Assembly (NCBI GenBank): GCA_045863335.1
Contig: BTVY01000023.1
Location: 15,755-79,754, forward strand
Reading direction: 5' to 3'
DNA: 64,000 nucleotides
From: Candidatus Hydrogenedentota bacterium
GTDB taxonomy: Bacteria; Hydrogenedentota; Hydrogenedentia; Hydrogenedentales; SLHB01
This document shows positions 4,653-54,110 of this stretch, in pieces. Numbering within the stretch: position 1 is the first letter of the stretch; each line of letters begins with the position of its first letter. The notes under the pieces were generated by a model that was not told where the DNA came from, ran no database searches, and saw nothing but the letters and a program-made list of their open reading frames with translations. Position numbers and translations under genes: made by a program.

Positions 4653-5303
4653 CTAGAGTTGCGCAGGCAATTGCGTCGCCTGCTGCAAGAGGTCCACTTC
4701 CTGATCGTAGGCGGCCACGAGTGACCGAATGAGCTGTTGATTGGCGGGGTCCTGTTTCAACGCCGCCTTTATCTCGGCAATCGCGGTGCCGATAATCGCG
4801 AGATTCTCATCCACCACCGCAACCGTTTCCGGCGACAACTGGTCGCGCGAGTCATCCAGCGCTTGCACCAGGAGCGCGCGGGCCTGGCCGTACTCGGCCT
4901 CGACAAGCGCCAATTCCGAGCCGTCCGTTTTGCCGGGCTCAACGAGCGTCACAGTCGTGTCCTGCGGCGGCGTGCCCCATTGGAATTGCGCGAACAGGAT
5001 TCCCGCGAAGAAGACGGCCGCAAAGGACGCCGCAAGCAAGGCGTACCGGTACCGGCCCGAGCCTTTCGGTCGTTCCGGCTCGCGCCGCTCCAGGCGCGCT
5101 TCGATACCCGCCCAGAGATCGCGCTGCGGCGTCACGGTCTTCGGGAGCGCCGCCGCTTCGTCCATCACCCGCCGCAGCGAAGTTTCCAAGGCTCGATAAT
5201 CCGCGTCTCGCGCGAGTTCTTGCTCCACGGTTGCCGCTTCCTCGGGCGTCAACACGCCGTCGAGATAGTCGTTCAACCGGGCTTCCCGATCATCCACGTT
5301 CAT
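4653..5303 (-). CDS. Anti-sigma factor (single-pass membrane protein)
   Basis: N-terminal anti-sigma-like helix (LNDYLDGVLTPEEAATVEQELA) and a central TM segment (YALLAASFAAVFFAGILFA). The start overlaps the sigma stop (ATGA). Confidence 0.55.
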   Translation of the reverse strand: MNVDDREARLNDYLDGVLTPEEAATVEQELARDADYRALETSLRRVMDEAAALPKTVTPQRDLWAGIEARLERREPERPKGSGRYRYALLAASFAAVFFAGILFAQFQWGTPPQDTTVTLVEPGKTDGSELALVEAEYGQARALLVQALDDSRDQLSPETVAVVDENLAIIGTAIAEIKAALKQDPANQQLIRSLVAAYDQEVDLLQQATQLPAQL

Positions 5304-8924: not shown

Positions 8925-9905
8925 ATGTCCAGAGATCGTGTGAGTCGCAGAGAATTCATCCGGGACGCCGCCGTGTTAACCGGTGGCGTCGCCGCGGTGT
9001 CGTCGGTCCACGCGCAGCAAGCCGCAAAAGTGCCCCGCGCTATTCTTGGCCGTACCGGCGTCGAAGTGTCGCGGCTGGGCATCGGCTGCGCCCATTTTCA
9101 GCGGCCCAACGTAACGGTCGACGACGTAGGCGCCGCCATGCACCGCGCCCTGGAACTGGGGGTCGACTATTTCGATACGGCCCCGAACTATGGCCGGGGC
9201 GACCACTTTGCCGAAACAAAGATGGGCCCCACCGTCAAGGAAGTTCGGGATCGAATCTTCCTCGTGACCAAGACGGAAGAGCCGACGTACGATGGCACCT
9301 GGAAATTACTGCGCCAGAGTATGGAACGGTTGCAGACCGATCGGCTCGACCTCGTCCACGTCCACAACTTTGGCATGGAGTCGCGATTCGAGGACCTCGA
9401 TTTCGTATTCAGTGACAAGGGCACGCTTGGAGCCCTTCGCGAGGCCAAGCAACAGGGCGTGATTCGTTTCATCGGCGCCAGCGGCCACTTGTATCCATCG
9501 CGCTTTCACAAGATCCTCGATACGGGCGATATCGACGTGCTCATGAATGCGGTCAACTTCGTGTGCCAGCACGTCTACGATTTTGAAGGCAAGGTGTGGA
9601 GCCGCGCGCGCGGCGAAAACATCGGCTTGGTTGCTATGAAAGTGTTGGGCGGCGCATCGGGGGGCAATACCTTCCGCATGGCCAAGGACCATTACGAGTC
9701 GGCGGTGCGTTATGCGCTATCCATTCCGGGTTGTGCGGTGGCCGTGATCGGCTGTGAGAACGCGAAGGAGATCGAAGAGGCGGCCCAGGCTGTCGCCTCT
9801 GCCCAACCGCTTTCGGATGACGAGCGTATCCAGCTCGCCCAGCTGGGCCAGGAATTGGCGACGACCCAAGCGTGGAAGGCTGCGTACGGCGAACCGTTGA
9901 CATAG
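8925..9905 (+). CDS. Aldo/keto reductase with twin-arginine (Tat) signal
   Basis: SRREFIRDAAVLTGGVAAV Tat motif; AKR motifs (GIGCAHF, DYFDTAPNYG). AAGGAGG RBS 7 nt upstream of the ATG. Confidence 0.75.
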   Translation: MSRDRVSRREFIRDAAVLTGGVAAVSSVHAQQAAKVPRAILGRTGVEVSRLGIGCAHFQRPNVTVDDVGAAMHRALELGVDYFDTAPNYGRGDHFAETKMGPTVKEVRDRIFLVTKTEEPTYDGTWKLLRQSMERLQTDRLDLVHVHNFGMESRFEDLDFVFSDKGTLGALREAKQQGVIRFIGASGHLYPSRFHKILDTGDIDVLMNAVNFVCQHVYDFEGKVWSRARGENIGLVAMKVLGGASGGNTFRMAKDHYESAVRYALSIPGCAVAVIGCENAKEIEEAAQAVASAQPLSDDERIQLAQLGQELATTQAWKAAYGEPLT

Positions 9906-33545: not shown

Positions 33546-34265
33546 CTACCGGTACGTCCACAGCATGGGATCGTTGAGATGGGACATGCCATTAAATCCA
33601 TTTAAGGTGAAGCGCCCGTTTGTGAACAGGAACTCCGTGGTCGAAGCGTTCCGCACCTGCCACACCAGTTCGAGCGTCGCCTCAGGAGTCGTGTTAAGGG
33701 CCATACCGAGTGCGACCGCCGTCGGGCCGCCGGAAGTAAACGCGGCGATGCGCTCGCCTTTCTTCGCGCGGTCGAGGATGGACCGGTACGCCGTTGTCAC
33801 CCGATCCCGAAAGTCAGCGAAAGTCTCTATCGCGTCGTCCCGATACTGTTCGTTGGCCCAGTGCAACATGAGCTTCTCAAAGGCCTTTTGGAAGTTCTTC
33901 TCCTTCTCGCGCTTGTCCTGGACTTCCATAAACTTCTGCATGAGCAACAGGACTTGCTCATCCTCCGCACAAAGTTGGGGCATAAAACGCTTCGCCAATT
34001 TCTCGACGGCCATCTCCGCGATGGCCTCTTCGATTTGAATCTCAGGAAACGTCTCGCCGGCCTTCGCATAGCATTCCGCGACGATCTCCGCGGAACGGCG
34101 TTGCCGCGCCAGGGGACCGGAGTAGACGCGATCGAAGGCGATCCCATGGCGGACCCAGAACTCCCCAAGGTGGCGGCACTGTTCCTCCCCCAACGGGCTC
34201 AGTTTGTCGTAGTCTTCCTCGTGAAACGAAGCTTGCCCGTGGCGGACAAGAATGAGAACACCCAT
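33546..34265 (-). CDS. Histidine phosphatase (phosphoglycerate-mutase-like) family protein
   Basis: LVRHGQASF (RHG motif). Start set at MGVLILVRHGQ. Confidence 0.6.
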   Translation of the reverse strand: MGVLILVRHGQASFHEEDYDKLSPLGEEQCRHLGEFWVRHGIAFDRVYSGPLARQRRSAEIVAECYAKAGETFPEIQIEEAIAEMAVEKLAKRFMPQLCAEDEQVLLLMQKFMEVQDKREKEKNFQKAFEKLMLHWANEQYRDDAIETFADFRDRVTTAYRSILDRAKKGERIAAFTSGGPTAVALGMALNTTPEATLELVWQVRNASTTEFLFTNGRFTLNGFNGMSHLNDPMLWTYR

Positions 34266-34305
34266 TTTGTGCTGAGACTCCAATACGTGCGGTAGACCTT
34301 GATTG

Positions 34306-34588
34306 CAAATTCGAAATCCGAAGCACGAAATCCGAAAACAAATTCTAATAACCGAAATTCAAAAAGACCCGTTCTCGATCAAACCGAAACAACCAATCCT
34401 CGCGAAGACCTTGAACCATACCGAAACGCGAATCCTTCGTGGCTTGGACGCCGTCGCCCAAGACGTATTGTCGGAATAGCCTGAGCGCGGCTCCCAAAAC
34501 CTTGGGCGAGGACGCCCAAGCACGGGATATACTTTCGCGCTTTGAACATTAATCTGTTTCGGATTTCGTGCTTCGGATTTCGAGTTTA
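34306..34588. mobile_element. MITE/REP-like element copy A: ~38-bp terminal inverted repeats flanking a ~205-bp non-coding core
   Basis: TIR-L caaattcgaaatccgaagcacgaaatccgaaaacaaatt (34306-34344) versus the reverse complement of TIR-R aatctgtttcggatttcgtgcttcggatttcgagttta (34551-34588): ~36/39 identical. Each TIR holds two CGAAATCCGAA units. The core contains two related hairpins (cttggacgccgtcgcccaag, cttgggcgaggacgcccaag). Confidence 0.45.
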
Positions 34589-34599
34589 ATCCCCTTACC

Positions 34600-34932
34600 T
34601 TACGGAATCGACGGAGGCGGGACAAGGGGCTCTCCCGATTCCAGCGAACGGACCACCGCGTCCAGAATAGGCTCAAGGTCGGCCGCGGTCACATGCGAGT
34701 ACCAGACGTTGTCCGGAAACACCATGATGTTGGGGCCGTCCTCGCACTTGTCCATGCAGCCCGACTGACTGACTCGAATCCTTGAGCGAAGCTGCCGCGC
34801 CTTGACCATGGCTTTGAGCGTGTCACGCAGTTCTCCGCCGCCCGCGCTCATGCAGCAGACCCGCTCGCCCTCCGCGCGTTCGTTGGTGCAGACAAAGATG
34901 ATCTTCTCAAAGGGTAGCGAATTGACGTCCAT
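34600..34932 (-). CDS. (2Fe-2S) thioredoxin-like ferredoxin domain protein
   Basis: FVCTNERAEGERVCCMSAGG ... SGCMDKCEDGPNIMVFPDNVWY Cys pattern. Start trimmed to MDVNSL with a GAAGG RBS. Confidence 0.45.
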   Translation of the reverse strand: MDVNSLPFEKIIFVCTNERAEGERVCCMSAGGGELRDTLKAMVKARQLRSRIRVSQSGCMDKCEDGPNIMVFPDNVWYSHVTAADLEPILDAVVRSLESGEPLVPPPSIP

Positions 34933-35045
34933 AGCGCGCCTTCTGAAAGGTAAAGCCGTTCCTAGCCCCAGGATCGATGATGGCGGGATTATACAGAATT
35001 CCGTGCCAATCGGAACGTGCCCGGCGGTCACACCCGTTGCGGCCT

Positions 35046-35088
35046 TTCGAATTTTGGACATTCGAAATTGTTCCGGATTTCGGATTTG
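35046..35088. repeat. Solo copy of the CGAAATCCGAA-type terminal repeat (right-end-like orientation)
   Basis: ttcgaattttggacattcgaaattgttccggatttcggatttgg is ~75% identical to the right-end region of copy B (ttcgaatttataacatttgaatttgtttcggatttcgag). Confidence 0.3.
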
Positions 35089-35195
35089 GTTCTTTCGCGG
35101 CGCCATACCTTGTCCCTCACGATGCCATTCGATATGCTGTGGTCCAGGCGGCAACCGCTGCCATCGACTTCCATCACCGGCCTACGGGGTATCTT

Positions 35196-37004
35196 ATGGC
35201 TGAATCCATCGTACTCGGACTCGCGGGTATCGTCGTACTCGGCATTGCCGCGGAGTGGCTGGCCTGGCGCATTCGCCTGCCAACGATCTTCGTCCTGCTC
35301 ATATTCGGCGTCTTCGCCGGGCCGATCACGGGCCTTTTCGACCCGGATCGCATGTTCGGCGACTTGCTGATGCCGCTGGTCTCCCTGTGCGTCGCCGTAA
35401 TTCTTTTTGAAGGCGGCTTGACCCTTCAGCTTCGGGAGCTGCGCGCCGTCGGCCGAGTCGTCTGGCTCTTGATTACGGTAGGCGTACTGATTACATGGGT
35501 ACTCGCGGCGGCGGCGGCGAGTCTCTTCCTTGGGTTCGAAGCCCGGCTCGCTGCCTTGCTCGGGGCCATCCTCGTAGTGACGGGTCCGACTGTCATCATA
35601 CCCCTGCTCGCGCACGTTCGGCCACGCGGGAAGGTCGCGTCCATCCTCAAGTGGGAAGGCATTACCATCGATCCCGTGGGCGCCAGCTTTGCCGTGCTTC
35701 TATTTGAAGCACTGTATCTCCATGCGGACGAAACAGCGACCTTGGTTGTAGCGTTGGGCGTGATTCGCACCATCGCCATTGGGTGTCTGCTTGGCGGCGC
35801 GGGGGTCGTCTTTCTCGTCGTCGTGTTGCGGAAGCATTGGGTTCCCGATCATCTGCATAGCCCCGTGGCGCTTGCCGTCGTCCTCGGGACCTTCGCGTTG
35901 TCCAACACGCTACAGCACGAATCGGGACTGTTGACCGTGACCTTGCTCGGGGCGATTCTCGCCAATCAACGTTACGTGAATATCCGGCACGTGGTGGAGT
36001 TCAAAGAGAATCTCCGCGTTCTTTTGTTGTCTAGTTTATTCATCCTACTCGCGGCACGCCTGGATTTGGACCGTCTCCTGCGGCTTGGTCCAGGTACCGC
36101 CTTGTTTCTCGGCGCGCTAATACTCCTCGTACGACCCGCAACCGTGCTCACCTGCACCATCCGTTCCGGCTTGAACTGGCGGGAACGGGCCTTTCTCGCC
36201 TATCTCGCGCCACGCGGGGTCGTGGCAGCAGCAGTGGCTTCCGTCTTTGCCCTCCGGCTATCGGAGAACGGCATCGCGCAAGCGGAGGAGATGGTGCCGG
36301 TCACATTTTTTGTGATTGCGGGGTTAGTCGGCTTGTACGCGCTGACCGCACGCCCGGTCACGCGGCTGCTGGGGCTTGCGCTACCGGAGCCGAACGGTGT
36401 GGTGATTGTAGGCGCGCACCGCCTGGGCCGCGCCATTGGTAAGGCTTTAAAAACCGAGGGCATTCCCGTGCTTGTTATCGATCGAAACTGGGGCAACATT
36501 TCCGCGGCACGCATGGAAGGATTGGCGACCTACCATGGCGACGTGCTGTCGGAACACGCCCTGCACGAAACAGACCTCTCCGAGATGGGCAAACTCGTCG
36601 CCCTGACGGCTAACGACGAAGTCAATTCGCTGGCTGCGCTACACTTCAGCGAACGTTTCGGTACCACCGCGGTCTACCAGTTAGCCGTAGCTGGCTCCAC
36701 CTCGGATAGAAGCGAAACGAAAGAACCGGCGTCCCATCTGCGCGGACAGATTCTTTTCAGCAAAGACTTTGGCTATGATGCGCTCGCGCGGCGGGTTGTC
36801 GAGGGCGCGGCCATGAAGGCCACCAAGATCAGTGACAAGTTCACCTTCGACTCCTTTCGGGATGAGCACGGCGAATCCGCGACGCCCATGTTTATCGTCA
36901 CTGAGCGGGGAGGACTGCGCATGATCACTGCCGGTATGGAGGTGAATCCGCAGCCCGGGGACAAGATCATCGCGTTGGTCGATCGCGAACCGGAGGTTGC
37001 GTGA
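35196..37004 (+). CDS. Cation:proton (Na+/H+) antiporter, CPA1 family, with C-terminal TrkA-N/RCK domain
   Basis: 10-12 TM helices, then VVIVGAHRLGRAIGKALKTEGIPVLVIDRN (Rossmann/RCK). Start trimmed to MAESIVLGL. Confidence 0.7.
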   Translation: MAESIVLGLAGIVVLGIAAEWLAWRIRLPTIFVLLIFGVFAGPITGLFDPDRMFGDLLMPLVSLCVAVILFEGGLTLQLRELRAVGRVVWLLITVGVLITWVLAAAAASLFLGFEARLAALLGAILVVTGPTVIIPLLAHVRPRGKVASILKWEGITIDPVGASFAVLLFEALYLHADETATLVVALGVIRTIAIGCLLGGAGVVFLVVVLRKHWVPDHLHSPVALAVVLGTFALSNTLQHESGLLTVTLLGAILANQRYVNIRHVVEFKENLRVLLLSSLFILLAARLDLDRLLRLGPGTALFLGALILLVRPATVLTCTIRSGLNWRERAFLAYLAPRGVVAAAVASVFALRLSENGIAQAEEMVPVTFFVIAGLVGLYALTARPVTRLLGLALPEPNGVVIVGAHRLGRAIGKALKTEGIPVLVIDRNWGNISAARMEGLATYHGDVLSEHALHETDLSEMGKLVALTANDEVNSLAALHFSERFGTTAVYQLAVAGSTSDRSETKEPASHLRGQILFSKDFGYDALARRVVEGAAMKATKISDKFTFDSFRDEHGESATPMFIVTERGGLRMITAGMEVNPQPGDKIIALVDREPEVA

Positions 37005-40076: not shown

Positions 40077-41750
40077 GTGCCGTACCGAACCATCTCGCGA
40101 CGTGTCGGCGACGCCGTGCGACTTGCGGAAGTCGCGCAGGTGCTGGTCCGTCACGGCTTCGCGGACCTGGTACGGCGCGTCGGATTGTACGAGGGGGCGC
40201 CGGCCAAACTGCTGCGCAGCCTGCATCTCATCGAGCAGGCTCCTGACGTGCCGGAGACGATGGGCGCGCGCTTGCGGGCCGCTCTCACGGAATTAGGGCC
40301 GACGTTCGTTAAGTTCGGTCAAATCCTGAGCACCCGGCCAGACGTGCTCGGGCCGGAAGTCTGCGCCGAGTTGAGCGACCTCCAGGACCGAGTGGCAGCC
40401 CTTCCCTTTGAAACGATGCGGCCGGTCATTGAAGCCGAACTCAAGGGAAGGCTCGAGGATCACTTCAGCACGTTCAACGAAACACCCGTCGCCTCCGCCT
40501 CGCTGAGCCAGGTCTACCGTGCGCGCACCCAGTTGGGCCGGGAAGTTGCGGTCAAAGTGCAGCGTCCGGGAATCCGGAAAACGATTCAGTCGGACCTGAG
40601 CCTCATGCGCGGTTTGGCGGAATGGATCTCCGAGCACGTCAAGGAATTGCAGTGGATCGATCCCGTCGGGACCGTGGAAGAGTTCAACCGCACCGTCATG
40701 CGGGAACTCGATTTCACGATCGAAGCCCACATCATTCAGCGCTTCCGCAAGAACTACTCCGGCGAGACGGCGGTCTTCGTGCCGCGCGTGGAGACCGACA
40801 TTTCCGGTCCGCGGATGCTCGTCATGGACTGGATTGACGGTGCGCGGGTGGATGCTCTGGACCAGTACGAATCCCGCAATTGCATCCCGCGGACCGTTGC
40901 GGCCAACGGCGCAAACACGCTATGCCGGCAGGTCTTCGAATTCAACCTGTTCCACGCCGACCCCCATCCCGGCAACATTCTCGTGACGCGAAACGACCAG
41001 ATCGCGTTTCTGGATTACGGCATGGTAGGGCACTTGCAACCCCACGATGTCGATGCCATCGCCGATTTGTTGCGGGCGGTCTTCGAAGAGGATTCGCCGC
41101 GCTGCGTGGACGCGTTGCTCAGGTTCACGGTCGCCGGGGAGACCGAGCACCGCGCGGAACTGGAACACGACGTTGCCGAGTACATCGCCTTCGAAGCCCG
41201 CTCAGTCATGGGCAACGCGGACGTCGGCAAGGCGCTCGACCAAATCACAAACATTCTGCGGCGGCACCGGCTGCAGCTTGCCCCGCGCTTTTCCCTGTTG
41301 CTGAAAGCCATGGCGACCATCGAGTCTACCGCAAAGACCCTCGACAAAACGCTGGACATGGGACCCGTCATTCGCCCCTATGTGGAGAACATCATCAAGC
41401 AGCGCTTTGCCCCGGTGCGGCTCGCCAAGGAAAGCCAACAGACCCTCGCCTCGGCCATCCGCATCGGCAAAGAGATTCCCGGCGAAGTGCAAAGCCTGGT
41501 GCGCACGTTCCGCAAGGGCAAGTTCCGGATTCAACTCGATCACGAAGGGCTCGACCACCTGGCCAACGTCACCGACCGGGCCAGCAACCGGATCGCCTTC
41601 AGCCTGATCGCCGGGGCCCTGATTGTCGGTTCCAGTCTGCTCATCTCGTCCGACATCGGAGCGCGATCGCTCGGCTACGCCGGATTCACCTTCGCCGGAG
41701 TCCTCGGAATCATGCTGCTAATCTCGATTCTGCGCTCGAAGAACTATTAG
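40077..41750 (+). CDS. ubiB: UbiB/ABC1 atypical kinase family protein
   Basis: ABC1 motifs (PVASASLSQVYRA, VAVKVQRPG, HADPHPGNIL) and C-terminal TM helices. Confidence 0.8.
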   Translation: MPYRTISRRVGDAVRLAEVAQVLVRHGFADLVRRVGLYEGAPAKLLRSLHLIEQAPDVPETMGARLRAALTELGPTFVKFGQILSTRPDVLGPEVCAELSDLQDRVAALPFETMRPVIEAELKGRLEDHFSTFNETPVASASLSQVYRARTQLGREVAVKVQRPGIRKTIQSDLSLMRGLAEWISEHVKELQWIDPVGTVEEFNRTVMRELDFTIEAHIIQRFRKNYSGETAVFVPRVETDISGPRMLVMDWIDGARVDALDQYESRNCIPRTVAANGANTLCRQVFEFNLFHADPHPGNILVTRNDQIAFLDYGMVGHLQPHDVDAIADLLRAVFEEDSPRCVDALLRFTVAGETEHRAELEHDVAEYIAFEARSVMGNADVGKALDQITNILRRHRLQLAPRFSLLLKAMATIESTAKTLDKTLDMGPVIRPYVENIIKQRFAPVRLAKESQQTLASAIRIGKEIPGEVQSLVRTFRKGKFRIQLDHEGLDHLANVTDRASNRIAFSLIAGALIVGSSLLISSDIGARSLGYAGFTFAGVLGIMLLISILRSKNY

Positions 41751-41854
41751 CATTAGCGGCTTCGGTGAGTTCCCTTTTCAGGTCGGACGAGACAGGCCCT
41801 CCAACGGACGGCAAACATGTGAGCCAGAGATTCTGAATGGATGTCCGTGTTAAG

Positions 41855-41872
41855 TCCCCCTTCGAAGGGGGA
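41855..41872. promoter_or_regulatory. Perfect 18-bp palindrome TCCCCCTTCGAAGGGGGA between ubiB and ispE
   Basis: Read directly; followed by ttt then aggggg. Could be a weak terminator or an operator. Confidence 0.3.
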
Positions 41873-41930
41873 TTTAGGGGGATGTTTCCCGAAGAACCGG
41901 GATCAGCTATCGGTTGTTGCAGGAACAAAC

Positions 41931-42800
41931 ATGCTCGAGATCAAGTCCCACGCCAAGATCAACCTCTACCTCGACGTGCTCAACAAACGGCGCGACGGGT
42001 TCACCAATATTGAAACCATCTTCCAGACCGTAAGCCTGGCGGATACGCTCCTGCTCGAACCACGGCCGGAAGAAGTCACCATGGAGTGCACCATGCCCGG
42101 CGTGCCGACGGACGAGTCGAACCTCGTCATCCGCGCCGCGCGATTGCTACAGCAGGAAACCGGTTGCCGCGCTGGCGCACACATGCGGCTGGAGAAACGC
42201 ATCCCCATGGCCGCGGGACTCGCAGGAGGTTCGGGGAACGGTGCCGCGGCCCTGGCCGGACTGAACGATTTGTGGGGCCTTGGCCTATCGATGCCGCGCC
42301 TGGAACGCCTGGCTGCGCGGCTCGGATCGGACGTGCCCTATTGCCTCCATGGCGGCACTGTCGCCGCGACCGGACGGGGCGAGCGCATGAAGCAACTGGG
42401 CCCGATTCAGGAAACGTGGTTCGTCCTGCTGCACCCCGACCTGCACGTGAGCACGCGCGACGTGTACACCAGTCCGGACTTGGCACGCAGCGCCGAACGG
42501 CCATTCGCCGGATCGACGCCCGCCTTTCGTCGCGCCATCGAAGCGGTAACCGAAGGGCGCCTCGCCGATGCACTATTCAACCGCATGGAAACGGCCGCTT
42601 TCCCCATGCACCCCGAGTTGGCGGATTGGAAGCAACAACTGCTCGACTGCGGCTGCAACGCCGCCATCATGAGCGGCAGCGGCCCCACCGTCTTCGGACT
42701 CTGCGCGTCGCAGCAGCACGCGGAGTCTGTCGCCGGACAAATGAGCGGGATTCGCGTGTCGGTCGTCCATAGCGTGGACCGGGCGCTTGAGTTGATCTAA
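41931..42800 (+). CDS. ispE: 4-diphosphocytidyl-2-C-methyl-D-erythritol kinase
   Basis: N-terminal AKINLYLDVLNKRRDGF and GHMP-kinase motif PMAAGLAGGSGNGAAAL. Start trimmed to MLEIKSH with an AGGAA RBS. Confidence 0.8.
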   Translation: MLEIKSHAKINLYLDVLNKRRDGFTNIETIFQTVSLADTLLLEPRPEEVTMECTMPGVPTDESNLVIRAARLLQQETGCRAGAHMRLEKRIPMAAGLAGGSGNGAAALAGLNDLWGLGLSMPRLERLAARLGSDVPYCLHGGTVAATGRGERMKQLGPIQETWFVLLHPDLHVSTRDVYTSPDLARSAERPFAGSTPAFRRAIEAVTEGRLADALFNRMETAAFPMHPELADWKQQLLDCGCNAAIMSGSGPTVFGLCASQQHAESVAGQMSGIRVSVVHSVDRALELI

Positions 42801-43074
42801 ATTCGAAATCCGAATCTCGAAATCCGAAACAAATCCGAAGGACCAAAACCCTAAACGTGACCGTTCCGGTCGGCTGGCGGGAGACGGTCACCGTGGCAGT
42901 GCGCGAGTCGAAGGCTGAAGCGGAGTTCGCCGCTGGCACCAACGAAGGTTATGAATACTGACCGAACCAGAAACTCCTGCGATAACCGATAAACGCTGTT
43001 GAGGCCCGTTTCGGTCATTCGAATTTATAACATTTGAATTTGTTTCGGATTTCGAGATTCGGATCTCGAATTTG
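42799..43074. mobile_element. MITE/REP-like element copy B: ~35-bp terminal inverted repeats flanking a ~205-bp non-coding core
   Basis: TIR-L aaattcgaaatccgaatctcgaaatccgaaacaaa (42799-42833) versus the reverse complement of TIR-R tttgtttcggatttcgagattcggatctcgaatttg (43039-43074): near-perfect. The element exactly fills the gap between the convergent ispE stop (42800) and esterase stop (43080). Confidence 0.45.
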
Positions 43075-45089: not shown

Positions 45090-45167
45090 GGTCTTTCCTC
45101 CAACGTTTGCCGCGCCAATCTCAGAATTGTAGGGAGCGCGAGGACGGGCGGTCAATGGCGAGAAGGA

Positions 45168-45218
45168 AATACGTAATCCGAATTTCGGAATCCGAAACAA
45201 ATTCGAAGGACCAAAACA
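45168..45218. repeat. Solo left-end-like copy of the CGAAATCCGAA-type repeat
   Basis: cgtaatccgaatttcggaatccgaaacaaattcgaaggaccaaaac. Shares TIR plus the adjacent CGAAGGACCAAAAC with the left end of copy B, in the same orientation. Confidence 0.3.
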
Positions 45219-45324
45219 CGAAACTGGGGGGCCGAATCGTTGGAAGCGTGCTCGTTGCACATCCGATCGGTACAATGGTGCGGACCTTTTGAAACGAGTA
45301 CCACGACTTGCGGGGGTTCCATCC

Positions 45325-48312
45325 ATGGCGCGTTCGATTTGGATTCTAGTGTTGACGTTGGGTCTCTGGTCGGGCGCGGCTTGGTGCCAGGCCGTGGAGG
45401 ATGCGCCCGTCCCGGAGAAGGTCTATCAGGGCGACCTCATCGCCTATCCCGGACCGTGGGCCTTTGAACTGGGGCGTCCGCACATCATCCTCGTAAGCGA
45501 CGAGGAGTTAGAATTCCTCTCCGACCCTGACAAGGTCTTCAATATGACCACGGGCCGCAACCCGCGCGAAGACTCGCTGCGATCCATTTGCGAACGCGCC
45601 CAGGCCGCCGGGCATCCGACGCTCGTCATCGCATTCGACCATTTCTTCAGCCAATACCGTCCCGGCCAGGAAGGGAAGCCGCGCCGCCTCACGCCGGACA
45701 TGGACGAGTACGTGGAGCGCATGACCGCCATCGCGAAGTTCGCCCAAGGCTACGGGCTTGGCCTGGAGCTGAGCCTGTTGAGCCCCCTCGAAATCGGGCC
45801 CGCCTACCGCGCCGCCACGGGCGAGTCGGGCGTATGGATGCATTACCGGAAAGGCGTGCGCGACCCGGAGACCGGCGCGTTCAGCGTGCAGCTCTGGCAA
45901 CACCAGCGCTGGTCCAACAACAAAGGCCCCATCGACCTCGAAGATGCGGGCGTGCGTGTGTTTGCGTTCAACGAGCGCGGCGTCCGCGGAACGCCGTACC
46001 GCGTCGTCGATCCCGCGTCCATCATTGAGATTACGGACGTGGCAAAGGTGGAGCCGTGGGACGGCGCCGTTCGCACTGCCGGCGACTTCCGCGCGCGGCG
46101 GGTCCGCATCCATGGCGAAGGACGCACGGAGATTGGCAATCTCGATCGCGTGCTGGTCGTGCAGGTTTACCGTACGCCGGAGATGGACTATTTCAGCGAC
46201 CAGGCCCTGCCCTTTCTCAAAGGACTCATCGACAAGTACGCCGACGCGGGCGTAAAACTCAACGGCCTCTACTCCGACGAGATGCACATCCAGCAGGACT
46301 GGGGGTACTTCAACCACCACGACAACGGCGAATTCGCGGTGCGCTACGTAAGCCCGGGCATTGTGAACAAGTTCGCGGACCGCTATGGCGAGGAGTACCG
46401 CGACTTCGCGAAGTACCTGGTCTATTTCTGCTACGGCCAGGAAGACACCATGCACGATCTCAGCGCGAAGCAAGGCGTCATGCACGCCTTCGGCGATTCG
46501 CCGGAAGCCATCGCACAGACGGCCTTGTTCCGCGCGCGGTACTACCACTTCCTGCAAGATGGCGTTGTCGATCTCTTCGCTGCGGCGAAGGATCATGCCG
46601 AACGCCGCATGGGACATCGCCTCCACGCGCGCGCCCACGCCACCTGGGCTGAGAGTCCTACTATCGACAAGTGGAACACGGGCCGCCTGCCTCATGCGCG
46701 GAATCAGTACGAGTACACCTCCAACTTCCTCTGGTCCGATACGGTCCACCAAGCGACCTCGGCCTGTTACGACTACTTCAAGTGGGGCGACTTTCTCACG
46801 GGAAACGGCAACGACCACGCCGAGGGCGGCTGGCTCGACCGAAACTATTTCGCCATGGCGCTCGCGTGTTCGACGGGAATTCTGAACGAGGTGCCCTACT
46901 CCTACGCCGCTCATTGGGGTATGCCGCATGAACTGGCGCAACGGCGCCACGCCTTGGTCGACGTGTACGGCGCGGCGGCGTCGCCTCCCTTCATGCTCGT
47001 GGAAGAGGCGCAACACCGCGACACGGACGTGCTCATGCTGTATCCAATCGACCTCGTTGCGGCGGAAGAACGCTTCGGAAGCTGGATGACGCAGTACGGC
47101 TACGCGAACTACATCACCCAGGCGAAACTGCTCGAACGCGGCGTCGTGAAGAATGGCGCCATTGAAGTTGCTGGACGACGGTTCACAACCCTCGTCACGC
47201 TCTTCGAACCCTTCCCGAGCCCGGCGCTCATGACCATGATGAACGACCTCGCCGCGCAAGGTGGACGCGTGATCTGGTCGGGTCCACCGCCGGTGCTGGA
47301 CGCCGAGGGCAGTCCGGTCACGGCCGCGTGGAACGATCTCTTCGGCGTGGAATCCACGCCTGAACCCGGTGACGGGCTTATCGTCCCGGGCCGGGAGATC
47401 CAATTCGCAGGACCCCTGGCGCAGGTGCCCGCGCAAGCGATTCTGACGGACTTCATCGTGGACCGCATCTATCCCGTGACCGCGCGTGAAGGTGCCGCGG
47501 TCGCAGCAACCGTGCAGGACTGGACCGTCGGCGCCGTGCGGGCCACCGAATCCGGCGGCAGCCTGACCTATCTTGGGTTCCGCCCTCGTGACGATCAGGC
47601 GGCCAGCCTGGGCTATGAAACCCGCACTTGGTTCGAGGTGCTGAACGCGCTTGGCGCCTATCCCGCGTCGGGGGCCTTCGAAGGTATTAACGACAATCCC
47701 GACTACCTATCGCGCACGACCGAGTACCTGGTAGGCCGCTTCCCGAACGGTACCGTCGCAATCGCGCCCCACTTCCGCGCCATGGAAGAAGGCTGGCCCG
47801 GCGGGTTCGCGCGCAACGAAGAAGAGGACGCCGCGTATCTCACCGCAAATCCTCCGCCTTCCGACGCGCTGCAATTGCGGGACTTCAAAGCCTGGGGTCA
47901 TACGATTACCTACGAAGGTACGGGCGCCATGGCGTTCCGCCTGGACGACACGAACCGGCTCGTTGCCTTTGCCGGGTCCGGCTCCAACGCCGTCACCCTC
48001 GACGGTCAGACGCACACCTTCACCGACGGATCGCTCGCGCGTGTGGCGTGGGCGCCGGTCGCCGAAGCGCGTAAGGTCCCCGGCGGCGCTCTGGTTCAAA
48101 TCCTCGCCCACGGCAACGGCACGCTGCGCATTCCCGCAGCCAACATTCCGGCTGACGCGGTGGTCGTAGCCCAAGGCGCCACACCGGGCAGCCGCGGCGC
48201 GGTGGTCGAATCAACGCGCGAGGGCGACTATCTGCTGGTGACGATCGGGCCCGGATCTTCCGGCCGCTGGCTGTTTGCCGGTCCCGCGAGTCCGGCGCCG
48301 ACGGCTTCCTAG
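45325..48312 (+). CDS. Large secreted hypothetical protein (~1000 aa), possible carbohydrate-active enzyme
   Basis: Signal peptide MARSIWILVLTLGLWSGAAWCQA. No confident family; neighbours are esterase, GH95 and sulfatase. Confidence 0.4.
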   Translation: MARSIWILVLTLGLWSGAAWCQAVEDAPVPEKVYQGDLIAYPGPWAFELGRPHIILVSDEELEFLSDPDKVFNMTTGRNPREDSLRSICERAQAAGHPTLVIAFDHFFSQYRPGQEGKPRRLTPDMDEYVERMTAIAKFAQGYGLGLELSLLSPLEIGPAYRAATGESGVWMHYRKGVRDPETGAFSVQLWQHQRWSNNKGPIDLEDAGVRVFAFNERGVRGTPYRVVDPASIIEITDVAKVEPWDGAVRTAGDFRARRVRIHGEGRTEIGNLDRVLVVQVYRTPEMDYFSDQALPFLKGLIDKYADAGVKLNGLYSDEMHIQQDWGYFNHHDNGEFAVRYVSPGIVNKFADRYGEEYRDFAKYLVYFCYGQEDTMHDLSAKQGVMHAFGDSPEAIAQTALFRARYYHFLQDGVVDLFAAAKDHAERRMGHRLHARAHATWAESPTIDKWNTGRLPHARNQYEYTSNFLWSDTVHQATSACYDYFKWGDFLTGNGNDHAEGGWLDRNYFAMALACSTGILNEVPYSYAAHWGMPHELAQRRHALVDVYGAAASPPFMLVEEAQHRDTDVLMLYPIDLVAAEERFGSWMTQYGYANYITQAKLLERGVVKNGAIEVAGRRFTTLVTLFEPFPSPALMTMMNDLAAQGGRVIWSGPPPVLDAEGSPVTAAWNDLFGVESTPEPGDGLIVPGREIQFAGPLAQVPAQAILTDFIVDRIYPVTAREGAAVAATVQDWTVGAVRATESGGSLTYLGFRPRDDQAASLGYETRTWFEVLNALGAYPASGAFEGINDNPDYLSRTTEYLVGRFPNGTVAIAPHFRAMEEGWPGGFARNEEEDAAYLTANPPPSDALQLRDFKAWGHTITYEGTGAMAFRLDDTNRLVAFAGSGSNAVTLDGQTHTFTDGSLARVAWAPVAEARKVPGGALVQILAHGNGTLRIPAANIPADAVVVAQGATPGSRGAVVESTREGDYLLVTIGPGSSGRWLFAGPASPAPTAS

Positions 48313-51215: not shown

Positions 51216-53960
51216 ATGAGAACCACTCTTGTCATCGCCCTGACCGCATTCGTGCTTGCCGCCGCCGATGCCGCAGAACCCCTGCTCATGCGCGCGCCTT
51301 CCGGCGAAGCCTATGTCGAGCTGAACGAAACCGGCCGCACCATCCTTCCGAACGGGCGCTTCATCACACCCACCGGCACGATGATCCGCGTGCAGCCGCA
51401 CCCGTACGGCCTGACCATGAGCGAGGACGGACGCTGGGTAGTGGCGGTGTGCAGCGACGATCCTCAATTGGCCATCCTCGATCTCGCGAACCCTGGCGAA
51501 CCCCTCCTCTCGCACATCCCTGAAAACCTCGGCGAAGGCGAGGGCGTGCTGGACGCTGCCTTCATGGGCGCCGCGGTCGACCCTGCAAACAAGGTGGTCT
51601 ACATCGCGGGCGGCGGCGACTGGAGCGTCGTGGCCTTCGACCTGGAAACGCGGGAACGCCTTTTCCGGATCGACTGCGCCCACGAGAATGAGGACGGCGA
51701 TTTCACCTTCGGATACACCGGCGACCTGCGCCTCTCCGCCGACGGGAAGACGATCTACGCGGTCGACCAGTCGAACTTCCGCTTTCTCATTATCGATGTG
51801 GAATCGCAATCCCTGCGCAAGTCCATCGGCGTCGGGCGGTACCCCTTTGGGATTACTTTGTCGCCGGACGGCAAGAAGGCCTACGTCGCCAACGTGGGCA
51901 TGTTCGAGTACTCCTACGTGCGCGACGAAAAGGGCGGTATCGCTTCGCTCGAATTTCCTCCGTACGGCGTGCCGTCCAAGGATGCAAAGCGCGGCGTGGA
52001 GATCGACGGCAAAAAAGTCGAAGGCCTCGGCGATCCCAATGACATTCGCGGCATGTCCGTCTGGACGGTCGACATCTCCAAACCCGGCAAGGAGAAGGTC
52101 GTCGGCAAAACGAAGACCGGTCATCTCGTGGGCGAGAAGCTGGAAGACTTCCCGGCGGTGGGCGGCAGCAGTCCAAATTCCATGGCCGCCACCGAGAAGT
52201 ACGTCTACGTCTCCAACGGCAGCAATGACAGCATCAGCGTCATCAATCCCAAAAGCGGCAAGCGGCAGCACGACATCGATCTCGTGCTGGATTCCCGCGT
52301 CAATCACATCCGCGGCATGATCCCCTTCGGCGTGGCGCTCTCGCCGGATCGGGAGATCCTCTATGTCGCCGAGGCCGGTATCAACGCCATCGGTGTCGTG
52401 CGTCTGTCCGACGAAAAGGTGCTGGGCCATATCCCGACGGCGTGGTTCCCGAGCAAGCTTGCGGTTTCGCCCGACGGTAAGCGGCTCTACGTGGCCTGCG
52501 CGAAAGGCATCGGGTCGGGACCGAACGCGGGCCCCGGACACAAGGCCGGCGACCCGACCGGCATCGGCGCGCTTATGCGGGGGTACATCAACATCATCGA
52601 TCTCCCGCAATCCCAGGAAGCACTCGACGCCATGACGCGGCAAGTCATCGAAAACAACGTGGAGTTCTATGCCTTGTCCGATGACACTCGCCCGCAGGGA
52701 CATCCCGTCCCGCCCGCGCCCGGCACGTGGGAAAGCCCCATCAAGCACGTCATCTACGTGACAAAAGAGAACCGGACCTATGACGAGGTCTTCGGCGCGC
52801 TGCCGGGCGGCCGCGGCGACGCGGAATTATGCCGGCTTGGCAGACCTATTGACGTCTCGAACAAAGACAATTCGCGCACGGTGAAGGATGTCGTGCTCAT
52901 GCCGAATCACGTGGCCCTCGCAAAACGCTTCGCCGTCAGCGACAATTTCTATTGCGACTCCGACCACTCCGTCGACGGCCACCGCTGGCTCGTCGGCACC
53001 TACCCCAACGAGTTCATGGAAGCCAAGATCGGCGAAAACGCCAAGGGCGACGGCCCCGGCAACCACATGTTCATCGGCTCGTCCGGCGCGATTTATCCGG
53101 AGGACTACAATGAGGCGGGCGCGATCTGGGAACACTTCGCGCGGGGCGAACTGCGCTTCCGCAACTACGGTCTCGGTTTCGAGTTCAAGCCCCAACTCGA
53201 AGAGCAGGAGTACAAGTACACGGGCATCCGCCTGCCCATCAACTATCCCATGCCGGAGGTCTTGTTCCAGAACACCTCGCGCGAATTCGCCACCTACAAC
53301 ACGAGCGTGCCCGACCAGTTCCGCATGGACATGTTCCAGAAGGAATTCGAAGAGCGCTGGCTCAGCGGCAAAGAAGAATTCCCCGACATCATCACCATGA
53401 TGTTGCCCAACGACCACGGCGCTGGCGAACGGCCTGACGACGGGTATCCCTTCTGGGGATCCTACATGAGCGACAACGATCTCGCGCTGGGCCGGCTCGT
53501 CGAACTCATCAGTCACAGTCCATTCTGGAAGAACACGATCATCATGGTCACCGAAGACGACGCCCAAGGCTACCGCGACACCGTCGATGCCCATCGCTCC
53601 ATCTGCATGGTCATTGGACCCTACGCAAAGCGGGGATATGTTTCTCACCAACACGTGAGCATGTCGAGCATGCTGAAAACCATGTTCCTTATTCATGGCT
53701 TGCCCGCGCTGAACCAGTACGACGGATTCGCCACGGACCTCGCCGACATGTTCACCATGGAGCCCGCGAACGCCGAACCTTACAACGCCCTTCCCGTGAA
53801 CGCGGAGATCTTCGATCCGCAGAAAGCCTTCGATCCCCTGGACGAAGAGTTCGACTGGGAAGCCGCTACCGAGTACACCTCGGTCGACGACCAGGAATAC
53901 CTCGACACCGATCCCTACGGCCACAGCGGCGAGTCCGGCCACGTGGCCCGGACGGAGTAG
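51216..53960 (+). CDS. Secreted fusion: YVTN-type beta-propeller + phosphoesterase (PlcN/AcpA, PF04185-like) domain
   Basis: Signal peptide; repeated SPDGKxxYVAN propeller blades. The C-terminal domain begins with the hallmark VTKENRTYDEVFG (ENRSFDhyFG). Confidence 0.7.
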   Translation: MRTTLVIALTAFVLAAADAAEPLLMRAPSGEAYVELNETGRTILPNGRFITPTGTMIRVQPHPYGLTMSEDGRWVVAVCSDDPQLAILDLANPGEPLLSHIPENLGEGEGVLDAAFMGAAVDPANKVVYIAGGGDWSVVAFDLETRERLFRIDCAHENEDGDFTFGYTGDLRLSADGKTIYAVDQSNFRFLIIDVESQSLRKSIGVGRYPFGITLSPDGKKAYVANVGMFEYSYVRDEKGGIASLEFPPYGVPSKDAKRGVEIDGKKVEGLGDPNDIRGMSVWTVDISKPGKEKVVGKTKTGHLVGEKLEDFPAVGGSSPNSMAATEKYVYVSNGSNDSISVINPKSGKRQHDIDLVLDSRVNHIRGMIPFGVALSPDREILYVAEAGINAIGVVRLSDEKVLGHIPTAWFPSKLAVSPDGKRLYVACAKGIGSGPNAGPGHKAGDPTGIGALMRGYINIIDLPQSQEALDAMTRQVIENNVEFYALSDDTRPQGHPVPPAPGTWESPIKHVIYVTKENRTYDEVFGALPGGRGDAELCRLGRPIDVSNKDNSRTVKDVVLMPNHVALAKRFAVSDNFYCDSDHSVDGHRWLVGTYPNEFMEAKIGENAKGDGPGNHMFIGSSGAIYPEDYNEAGAIWEHFARGELRFRNYGLGFEFKPQLEEQEYKYTGIRLPINYPMPEVLFQNTSREFATYNTSVPDQFRMDMFQKEFEERWLSGKEEFPDIITMMLPNDHGAGERPDDGYPFWGSYMSDNDLALGRLVELISHSPFWKNTIIMVTEDDAQGYRDTVDAHRSICMVIGPYAKRGYVSHQHVSMSSMLKTMFLIHGLPALNQYDGFATDLADMFTMEPANAEPYNALPVNAEIFDPQKAFDPLDEEFDWEAATEYTSVDDQEYLDTDPYGHSGESGHVARTE

Positions 53961-54033: not shown

Positions 54034-54110
54034 AATCGCTATCGGGATCGGGATCGAAATCGTGCGGCACTTCGATACCGATCCCGATAGCGATACCGAT
54101 ACCGATGAGG
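54034..54110. repeat. Long near-perfect inverted repeat (24-bp arms of GATCGG/CCGATC units, 1 mismatch, 12-bp loop)
   Basis: atcgctatcgggatcgggatcgaa-atcgtgcggcac-ttcgataccgatcccgatagcgat, then further (gatacc)n. Several GATC sites. Confidence 0.5.

Follow-up and report, generated by a model that had tools for sequence, protein, structure and literature searches.

A non-coding inverted-repeat element with arms of 7-bp units in a Candidatus Hydrogenedentota genome is one copy of a family dispersed over many bacterial phyla

The stretch analysed here, referred to as the window, is 64,000 nucleotides of a Candidatus Hydrogenedentota bacterium (contig BTVY01000023.1, positions 15,755 to 79,754 of the forward strand). 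At 34307–34587 it contains a non-coding element of 281 bp, named element A, which lies between genes of the same strand: 17 nt after the stop (34600) of a 2Fe-2S/DUF1636-like (hereafter ferredoxin-like) gene and 41 nt before the start (34265) of a His_Phos-ACAD-APH operon. Element A is one copy of a dispersed family of non-coding inverted repeats, the arms of which are fixed arrays of 7-bp units (CGAAnnn). The parts of A and its two neighbours are the following; the E values come from an nhmmer search with a profile of foreign arms, described below.

34307–34363, plus strand: left arm of A, AAATT-CGAAATC-CGAAGCA-CGAAATC-CGAAAAC-AAAT, then degenerate heptads (inverted repeat; E 3.6e-10)
34364–34548, no strand: interior of A, non-coding (no match in a similarity search against all fetched loci)
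34549–34587, minus strand: right arm of A, its array read on the minus strand (inverted repeat; E 6.5e-10)
34600–34932, minus strand: gene for a 110-aa thioredoxin-like 2Fe-2S/DUF1636-like protein, the upstream neighbour of A
33546–34265, minus strand: His_Phos_1 phosphatase gene, the first gene after A

The outer parts of the arms, 34307–34337 and 34557–34587, are inverted 31-nt sequences with 97% complementarity, which extends to about 39 nt if one indel is allowed. The 11-mer CGAAATCCGAA occurs exactly at 34312, 34326, 34558(−), and 34572(−), that is, twice in each arm with a 14-bp period. These coordinates agree with the initial annotation of the locus, which had also been right about the non-coding nature of A, its two interior hairpins and its placement between the stop at 34600 and the start at 34265. 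With one mismatch at most, the 11-mer was found 12 times in the window against 2.4 expected, and none of 100 shuffled sequences reached 12. Two figures of that annotation need correction: the G+C content given as ~65% is about 0.56–0.64 (about 0.61) in the window, and the arms described as ~38 bp long are similar to other arms over about 56–64 nt inward from the tip.

RNA folding of the whole element A gave −128.7 kcal/mol with a z score of −8.1. Neither an intrinsic terminator nor a sigma-70-like promoter was detected inside A, and the three terminator matches in 34000–35400 fall elsewhere. Alignment with the orthologous elements of relatives revealed that approximately 34431–34532 is an extra stretch of about 90–100 nt present in this genome only, while the rest of the interior is homologous. 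This stretch is missing from the orthologous elements of the related loci L157 and L125 and contains two related GC-rich hairpins of its own (34444–34461 and 34502–34519, TTGGACGCCGTCGCCCAA and TTGGGCGAGGACGCCCAA), and so has the appearance of a nested insertion, apparently another small palindromic element within A. The hairpin pattern has no further occurrence in the window.

To find other copies, a profile was built from 147 arms, all of them from other genomes, and run over the 64-kb window with nhmmer. It recognised exactly six arms, namely the two of A, the two of a second element B and two single arms (C and D), and none in the other 53 kb of the window.

42799–42858, plus strand: left arm of B (inverted repeat; E 6e-15; 60/60 identical in the related locus L153)
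42859–43009, no strand: interior of B, non-coding and unrelated to the interior of A (stop codons in all six frames; matches true orthologs only)
43010–43073, minus strand: right arm of B, ending 6 nt before the stop (43080) of a convergent peptidase gene (E 4.6e-12)
45167–45229, plus strand: single arm C, without partner (E 6.6e-10, 45175–45222)
35041–35087, minus strand: single degenerate arm D (E 5.5e-6)

Element B (42799–43073, 275 bp) separates the stops of two convergent genes, IspE and an S9-type peptidase gene; the 41-nt arms of B are 93% complementary and its RNA fold has a z score of −9.1. The TAA stop codon of IspE (42798–42800) is composed of a T from the flank and the first two bases (AA) of B, both in the window and in L153. 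A and B can be aligned in their arms only. Arm C occupies the promoter region from which the peptidase gene and a gene starting at 45326 diverge, and its 88% identity with the left arm of B over 58 nt, reaching past the universal part of the arm, assigns both to the same sub-family. Arm D lies upstream of the promoter region of the ferredoxin-like gene, and the orthologous stretch is more decayed in the related loci L127 and L125. The four sites reported in the initial annotation are consequently real, but only A and B are complete elements. Upstream of the ferredoxin-like gene there is also a TATAAT box, attctgTATAATcc, at 34990–35000 (−), which is nearly unchanged in the window, L127 and L128 and reads TATACT in L125; arm D is about 40–90 nt upstream of the box, at the position expected for an activator or UP-type site.

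The extent of the family was examined by searching a one-genome-per-species collection with the 22-base-arm pattern CGAAATCCGAA-NNN-CGAAATCCGAA, so the arm set was gathered by an exact pattern; the fetched loci are 8-kb slices of genomes and the taxon labels are those of the deposited records. The pattern was found at at least 120 loci, and the matches fell into two classes: pure (CGAAATC)n runs, present in many genomes, and window-like arms, in which the middle triplet varies (TAT, GCA, TAC and others) and the sequence continues as ACAAAT(T/C)CAAA..TGACCAAAA. Window-like arms occurred in Planctomycetota (Gemmataceae, Thermoguttaceae, Phycisphaerae, Sedimentisphaerales, and Tepidisphaerales), Verrucomicrobiota including Kiritimatiellales, Omnitrophota, Patescibacteria (Staskawiczbacteria and Saccharibacteria), Desulfobacterota (Syntrophobacteria and Desulfobacterales), Acidobacteriota (Aminicenantes), and Binatia. 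Near-identical arms are thus found between genes in at least eight bacterial phyla, Hydrogenedentota of the window included. The arms of other phyla share 85–93% identity with those of the window over 58–68 nt, and they are A-rich throughout, in hosts with G+C contents from 0.37 (Patescibacteria) to 0.69 (Planctomycetota). All legibly titled records among the listed matches were metagenome-assembled genomes (MAGs) or uncultured bins, which may reflect a property of the family or the scan order. As several matches are on contigs of 0.2 to 7.5 Mb, mis-binning is ruled out as an explanation. The occurrence of at least 120 loci in many phyla, together with the gain of A and B described below, bears out the earlier view of a dispersed repeat family as opposed to a locus-specific site, though the family is far larger than was supposed there.

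The design of the arm is fixed: AAAT(C/T)-(CGAAnnn)x3-CGAAACAAAT, followed by degenerate heptads. Read as an array, it consists of a truncated AAnnn unit, three CGAAnnn units, CGAAACA, AAT, and about four degenerate CAAAnnn units, and its fixed part is 36 nt long. Alignment of 68 non-tandem arms showed 97, 94, and 91% A at positions −5 to −3, directly outside the first CGAA, and no conservation beyond the outer AAAT(C/T) edge. The ACAAAT after the last CGAA was 74–85% conserved in the same 68 arms, though it lies outside the query, and it is followed by a 7-nt periodic C.AAA pattern, the phase of which is moved by 4 nt. The 38 complete elements recovered from other genomes are 100–197 bp long, compared with 275 and 281 bp in the window. 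In the family the paired arrays face each other over 30–210 bp of variable sequence, and every element is an imperfect palindrome from end to end. The elements often occupy the entire intergenic gap and touch stops and starts. No bias was seen in strand or in the context of the gene pair (convergent, tandem, or divergent), as judged from crude gene calls that were based on open reading frames (ORFs) and misplaced some genes.

Variants of the arrays were also noticed among the fetched loci. Single arrays of the form AATC(CGAAATC)3-4, up to four per 8 kb, were present in L062, L077, L091, L074, L037, L051, L081, and L101 (Acidobacteria MAG SZAS-13). The SZAS-13 arrays are unpaired and extremely dense, have the same heptad as the arms of the window, and are often located directly before a start codon or directly after the stop of an opposite-strand gene. 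In three Akkermansiaceae MAGs (L018, L088, and L120), CGAAATCCGAAGCTCGAAATCCGAA is followed by a GC-rich segment (..GGCCTCCGGCGACCGCTGATC..) in place of ACAAAT, in some cases with GCTGATCTTC tandem repeats.

The history of the A site was traced in relatives ordered by the amino-acid identity of the His_Phos protein. In L157 (95%) an A ortholog of about 205 nt is present, the contig beginning inside the left arm; in L127 (90%) a remnant of about 50 nt is left; and L125 (82%) has a 191-bp ortholog. In the L122 ortholog (81%) the left arm has merged with the 3′-end of the ferredoxin-like ORF: at 9780–9905 of this locus the C-terminal codons are replaced and the called ORF enters the element by about 40 codons, which shows how such elements make false or altered gene ends. 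In L148 (69%) the gap between the ferredoxin-like and His_Phos genes is 28 nt long and contains no arm, thus it represents an empty site. No arms were present in the fetched loci of relatives at 62–69% identity (about 90 kb of distinct sequence). For the B site, L153 (IspE identity 96%) has the element at the same position, identical at 268 of 275 positions overall and at 150 of 155 in the interior, and it also has arm C. In L154 (IspE identity 85%) the peptidase gene and IspE have 14 nt in common (region 940–980 of the locus), which represents an empty B site, and no arm was found in the 8.4 kb of this locus; its IspE is 8 residues longer and extends about 12 residues past the point where the two C-termini diverge. 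The empty sites imply that this lineage acquired both elements: A came to separate two cistrons that had been neighbours, and B entered between convergent genes whose counterparts in a relative overlap.

Comparison with the same relatives revealed how the parts of the elements change. Between the window and L125 the fourfold degenerate sites are only 43% identical, that is, saturated, while the right arm of A is 85–89%, the left arm 64–70% and the immediate flanks 66% identical. The L125 arm resembles the B arms of the window (94–97%) more than its own ortholog (88%). When the window is compared with L153, fourfold degenerate sites have an identity of 0.84 across IspE and of 0.92 in its adjacent third. 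Conservation of the arms far exceeds the neutral expectation, while the interiors drift, take up nested insertions or get deleted. Elements A and B are accordingly under constraint yet dispensable, with the arms either selected or else homogenised to the family consensus. Two Logan short-read contigs, L001 (at window position 34334) and L157 (at its start), end inside arms, as is expected of a multicopy repeat in assembly graphs. A metagenome scan with the lineage-specific inner arm gave no match, and a metagenome search with the His_Phos protein returned distant relatives only, all without arms.

The question whether the arms are conserved as sequence or as the two sides of a stem was examined in the 38 complete elements, where one arm per element had been chosen by the query; compared with these, the arms of A and B in the window are unusually well matched. 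In the variable triplets the two arms of one element agreed in 0.618 of cases, versus 0.641 ± 0.019 for arms of different elements, while the CGAA cores were 98% conserved. The arm–arm mismatches comprised 80 G.U, 77 A.C, and 121 others. Selection on a transcribed stem would be expected to enrich wobble pairs on one strand, which was not seen; the lack of covariation and the equal numbers of G.U and A.C indicate that each arm is conserved as sequence and not as an RNA stem. The z scores of −8 and −9 obtained for A and B arise because any inverted repeat folds in this way, and single arms folded no better than shuffled sequences (z 0.05 and −0.66). The arm transcribed first from either side contains 45% A, 23% C, 14% G, and 17% T and is unstructured; it is always A/C-rich and G-poor because the element is symmetric. 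Judged from these alignments, the arms are conserved as primary sequence, each side independently, as would be expected if they were arrays of units recognised by a protein. Rfam 15 yielded no matching family at E ≤ 1 over 30–50 kb of the window, and a literature search by sequence returned PCR primers only.

Signs of mobility were looked for in the same 38 elements. Exact target-site duplications of 2–8 bp, tested in 64 offset combinations (−2 to +5), did not exceed those in shuffled controls, nor did partial flank identity at lengths of 2–10. In L153, B is flanked on both sides by GTCT, a 4-bp direct repeat, while the window has ATCT and GTCT at these places; this is a single case and may be due to chance. 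All-against-all BLASTP of 1,781 ORFs from the listed loci (at least 120) disclosed no recurrent neighbour protein. Arm pairs 0.4–4 kb apart were all separate small elements or pure tandem arrays, with no full-length element among them, and in the 8-kb slices no gene was bracketed by arms except by those of two separate elements. No autonomous partner with the same ends was found in the window, in the listed genome loci, or in 15 viral loci, the latter being the IMG/VR matches, all of them small elements; the PLSDB plasmids and INPHARED phages gave no match.

The explanation we prefer, with a confidence that is evenly balanced, is that a sequence-specific protein binds the heptads and copies or maintains the element in trans, and that element and protein spread together between phyla. 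This protein, for which the heptads would be the binding units, could be a recombinase or transposase specific to the element or else a DNA-binding protein that travels with the family. By analogy with RAYT and REPINs, it would engage both arrays and copy or maintain the element without target duplication, and the family would spread horizontally between phyla together with its protein; a secondary benefit for the host, such as protection of mRNA ends, termination, or insulation, could be added. Signs of copying within genomes are the 88% identity of the left arm of B and arm C over 58 nt, the greater closeness of the L125 arm to the B arms of the window, and the contigs broken in arms. Several observations weigh against this explanation. 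The A ortholog persists at the same site down to 81% amino-acid identity of the neighbour gene, and the interior of B changes about three times slower than the nearby synonymous sites; both fit a host function as well or better. No target-site duplication was detected, copies in one genome do not share their interiors, unlike those of a recently amplified miniature inverted-repeat transposable element (MITE), and no gene flanked by arms was seen in the listed loci, though such a sample could easily miss a single-copy gene. Finally, the recurrence of one arm sequence in many phyla would presuppose that an unseen protein was widely transferred horizontally or that a host factor is universally conserved. 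In a wider formulation, which we put forward only tentatively, the heptad-array element and its unseen binding protein may constitute one horizontally spreading system, present in at least eight phyla and even in the reduced genomes of Patescibacteria. Such a system would be miniature mobile or “regulon-seeding” DNA of a new class, propagated without target duplication and kept because the bound arrays act on neighbouring genes.

A host cis-element of the REP/BIME type is the main alternative, possible but rather doubtful, in which a conserved host factor that binds nucleic acids would recognise the arrays and mobility would be secondary or absent. Candidates are a nucleoid protein and, for binding to RNA, Rho, S1, a cold-shock protein, or an RNase, which would act in termination, insulation, or differential mRNA stability between neighbouring genes. 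Such a role agrees with the frequent filling of whole gaps by elements that abut stops and starts, with the splitting by A of an operon that is contiguous in L148, with the retention of arms where synonymous sites saturate, and with the conservation of B, its interior included, above that of neighbouring fourfold degenerate sites. The first-transcribed arm is A/C-rich, G-poor, and unstructured like a Rho loading site, the long stem would block exonucleases or attract RNase III, and three patchy Patescibacteria genomes contain up to three elements per 8 kb (L117). However, the elements are dispensable, being nearly deleted in L127 and absent from relatives at 62–85% identity, their distribution among close lineages is patchy, and they show no orientation or context bias to genes, as far as crude gene calls tell; A contains no intrinsic terminator or sigma-70-like promoter. 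A loose need such as that for a Rho site would not hold an exact 36-nt design across phyla. The host cis-element and the element-plus-protein explanation are compatible with each other. If, instead, the long hairpin itself were the functional product, for example as a substrate of RNase III, as the precursor of a small RNA, or as a barrier to exonucleases at the 3′-end of a message, the strong folds of A and B compared with shuffled sequences (z −8.1 and −9.1) and the end-to-end imperfect palindromes of all elements would be expected. But the arms do not covary, G.U mismatches (80) are as frequent as A.C (77) and accompanied by 121 non-wobble ones, there is no strand preference relative to genes and no Rfam match at E ≤ 1, and single arms exist and are conserved (C in L153), thus we consider a structured RNA quite improbable.

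A classical MITE, that is, a deletion derivative of an insertion sequence with a DDE transposase, moved by cut-and-paste and leaving a short, now decayed target duplication, was suggested by the terminal inverted repeats with conserved tips, the small, non-coding, intergenic nature of the elements, the existence of empty sites and the GTCT repeat around B in L153, 3 of 4 positions of which match in the window. We regard it as unlikely, because no exact or partial duplication above chance was present in 38 elements at lengths 2 to 10 and any offset, no full-length partner or transposase was near arms in the listed loci, PLSDB and INPHARED gave no match and IMG/VR only 15, all small, interiors are unrelated within one genome, and old copies retain their arms without decay. 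Origin of the arrays by slippage, without recognition by any factor and with only coincidental likeness across phyla, could account for the pure (CGAAATC)n runs in many genomes, and among the long simple repeats of bacteria, heptamer tandem repeats are reported to be the most common (Mrazek 2007, as cited in PMC4679880). It is nevertheless very improbable, since the arms have a set number of units and a sharp edge, conservation extends to the non-repetitive ACAAAT and TGACCAAAA-like parts, the arms of different phyla are 85–93% identical over 58–68 nt, and the arrays lack the length variation typical of slippage. An invertible switch, in which a site-specific invertase would recombine the arms and so turn the interior round, is extremely improbable. 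It would explain inverted repeats around a 30–210-bp intergenic segment at several loci per genome, but many interiors (about 30 nt) are too short for a promoter or for inversion, the window and L153 agree in the orientation of B (one comparison), no recurrent invertase gene is nearby, and A has no promoter-like site. Apart from these explanations, an origin from tRNA or tmRNA was searched for and found no support, and IHF sites, integron attC, dif/pdif, parS, CtsR, PurBox, Spo0A boxes, the CsrA GGA motif, and tRNA T-loop mimicry fitted poorly.

Three other places in the window deserve mention. Between the ABC1-kinase gene and the true start of IspE (41931), the 200 nt at 41724–41923 are 100% identical to L153, while the flanking genes are 92–95% identical; this segment holds a CCCCCTTCGAAGGGGG palindrome at about 41857–41872, has no Rfam match, and may be a conserved leader or a small RNA. 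At 1846–1890 and 4663–4683 there are adjacent hairpins, GCAGGCTTCCAGCCTGC and GCAGGCTGGAAGCCTGC, and a third GCAGGC...GCCTGC hairpin (3 matches versus 0.07 expected), and the similar GCAGGCGTCTCGCCTGC is inside the L122 element; these hairpins may form a separate REP-like family. In the gap after a 950-aa gene ending at 53960, a 24-nt inverted repeat with 96% complementarity and a 12-nt loop is located at 54035–54094, with short repeats of the ATCGGG/GATACC type.

The fixed, near-constant arm, the defined gains, and the constraint on the arms make the proposed partner protein findable, and finding it would settle whether the family is selfish DNA, a portable regulatory system, or both. In practical terms, short-read assemblies break at the arms, and false open reading frames arise where gene callers continue through them.

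Among known systems, MITEs such as Correia, RUP, and Nezha resemble the elements described here in being small, non-coding, and intergenic, in their terminal inverted repeats, and in their presence or absence between relatives. They differ in that the present elements have no target duplication, no matching insertion sequence in the listed loci and no interior shared between copies. Of the two assignments offered by the initial annotation, a classical MITE is therefore disfavoured by the lack of a target duplication and of a shared interior (no autonomous partner turned up in the listed loci), and the REP-like one by single arms that are not palindromes and carry no GTAG or CGTC tag. The annotation had also proposed to look for empty sites and target duplications, of which the former were found in L148 (A) and L154 (B) and the latter in none of 38 elements. 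Orthologous conservation of the intergenic sequence, which it regarded as a sign of a conserved regulatory region rather than a repeat, was seen in part: the element stays at the same site down to 81% amino-acid identity, yet it is multicopy, as REPINs are. A REPIN is a hairpin-forming inverted pair of short repeats of about 100 bp, extragenic and without target duplication, served by a single-copy protein in trans. REPINs are the nearest mechanistic model, sharing the inverted doublet hairpin, the lack of target duplication and the long persistence at orthologous sites. However, the REP unit is a 20–40-nt palindrome that is specific to a species or genus, whereas here single arms are unstructured and the same arm recurs across phyla. 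A passage of Di Nocera et al. (2013, PMC3733652) gives REPs a GTAG or CGTC tag at one end. Such a tag is absent here, where the arm tips read AAAT(C/T)CGAA, and no RAYT-like gene was seen in the 8-kb slices.

Cyanobacterial STRR heptamers are comparable dispersed heptamer arrays. To our knowledge, reports of dispersed heptamer arrays in Calothrix/Nostoc, Xanthomonas, Geobacter, and Beggiatoaceae go back decades but have stayed anecdotal and offer no mechanism, and we know of no experimental follow-up of the paired sites of Geobacter. TAACTGA direct repeats of Beggiatoaceae, Cyanobacteria, and Bacteroidetes, for which a repeat-binding protein was proposed as the mobile agent (MacGregor 2015, PMC4679880), are likewise dispersed intergenic heptamer arrays with a patchy distribution over distant phyla that suggests horizontal spread. 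Unlike the present elements, they are mostly single direct arrays before start codons, with variable copy number, one indirect repeat, and no fixed design (PMC4679880). The GGGAATC arrays of Xanthomonas consist of intergenic 7-nt units that are mostly transcribed and have no known function (Rehm et al. 2015, PMC4692102). They form 70–75 convergent, opposite-strand close array pairs per genome, and GGGAATC resembles CGAAATC, but they are G-rich and quadruplex-forming, contain up to 14 units and are limited to one genus with related units in Nostoc; a fixed arm design or cross-phylum identity is not reported there (PMC4692102). In Geobacter metallireducens, classes 1–3 of paired “global regulator binding sites” were described and read by the authors as protein-binding sites for global regulators not known (Aklujkar et al. 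2009, PMC2700814). As here, the pairs are on opposite strands at variable distance, comprise 3–5 tandem repeats of 7–9 nt, and are multicopy and intergenic; class 3 has five heptanucleotides, and one site lies between the cistrons proB and proA. In contrast, their units are GTTGCTYN, TCTCCGTS, and MTYCTGA, and three of the classes were reported as unique to that genome (PMC2700814). The element fits the description of paired intergenic heptamer arrays of the Xanthomonas and Geobacter type, which is a descriptive class; while this architecture had already been described, the fixed arm design, near-identical over at least eight phyla, sets the present family apart.

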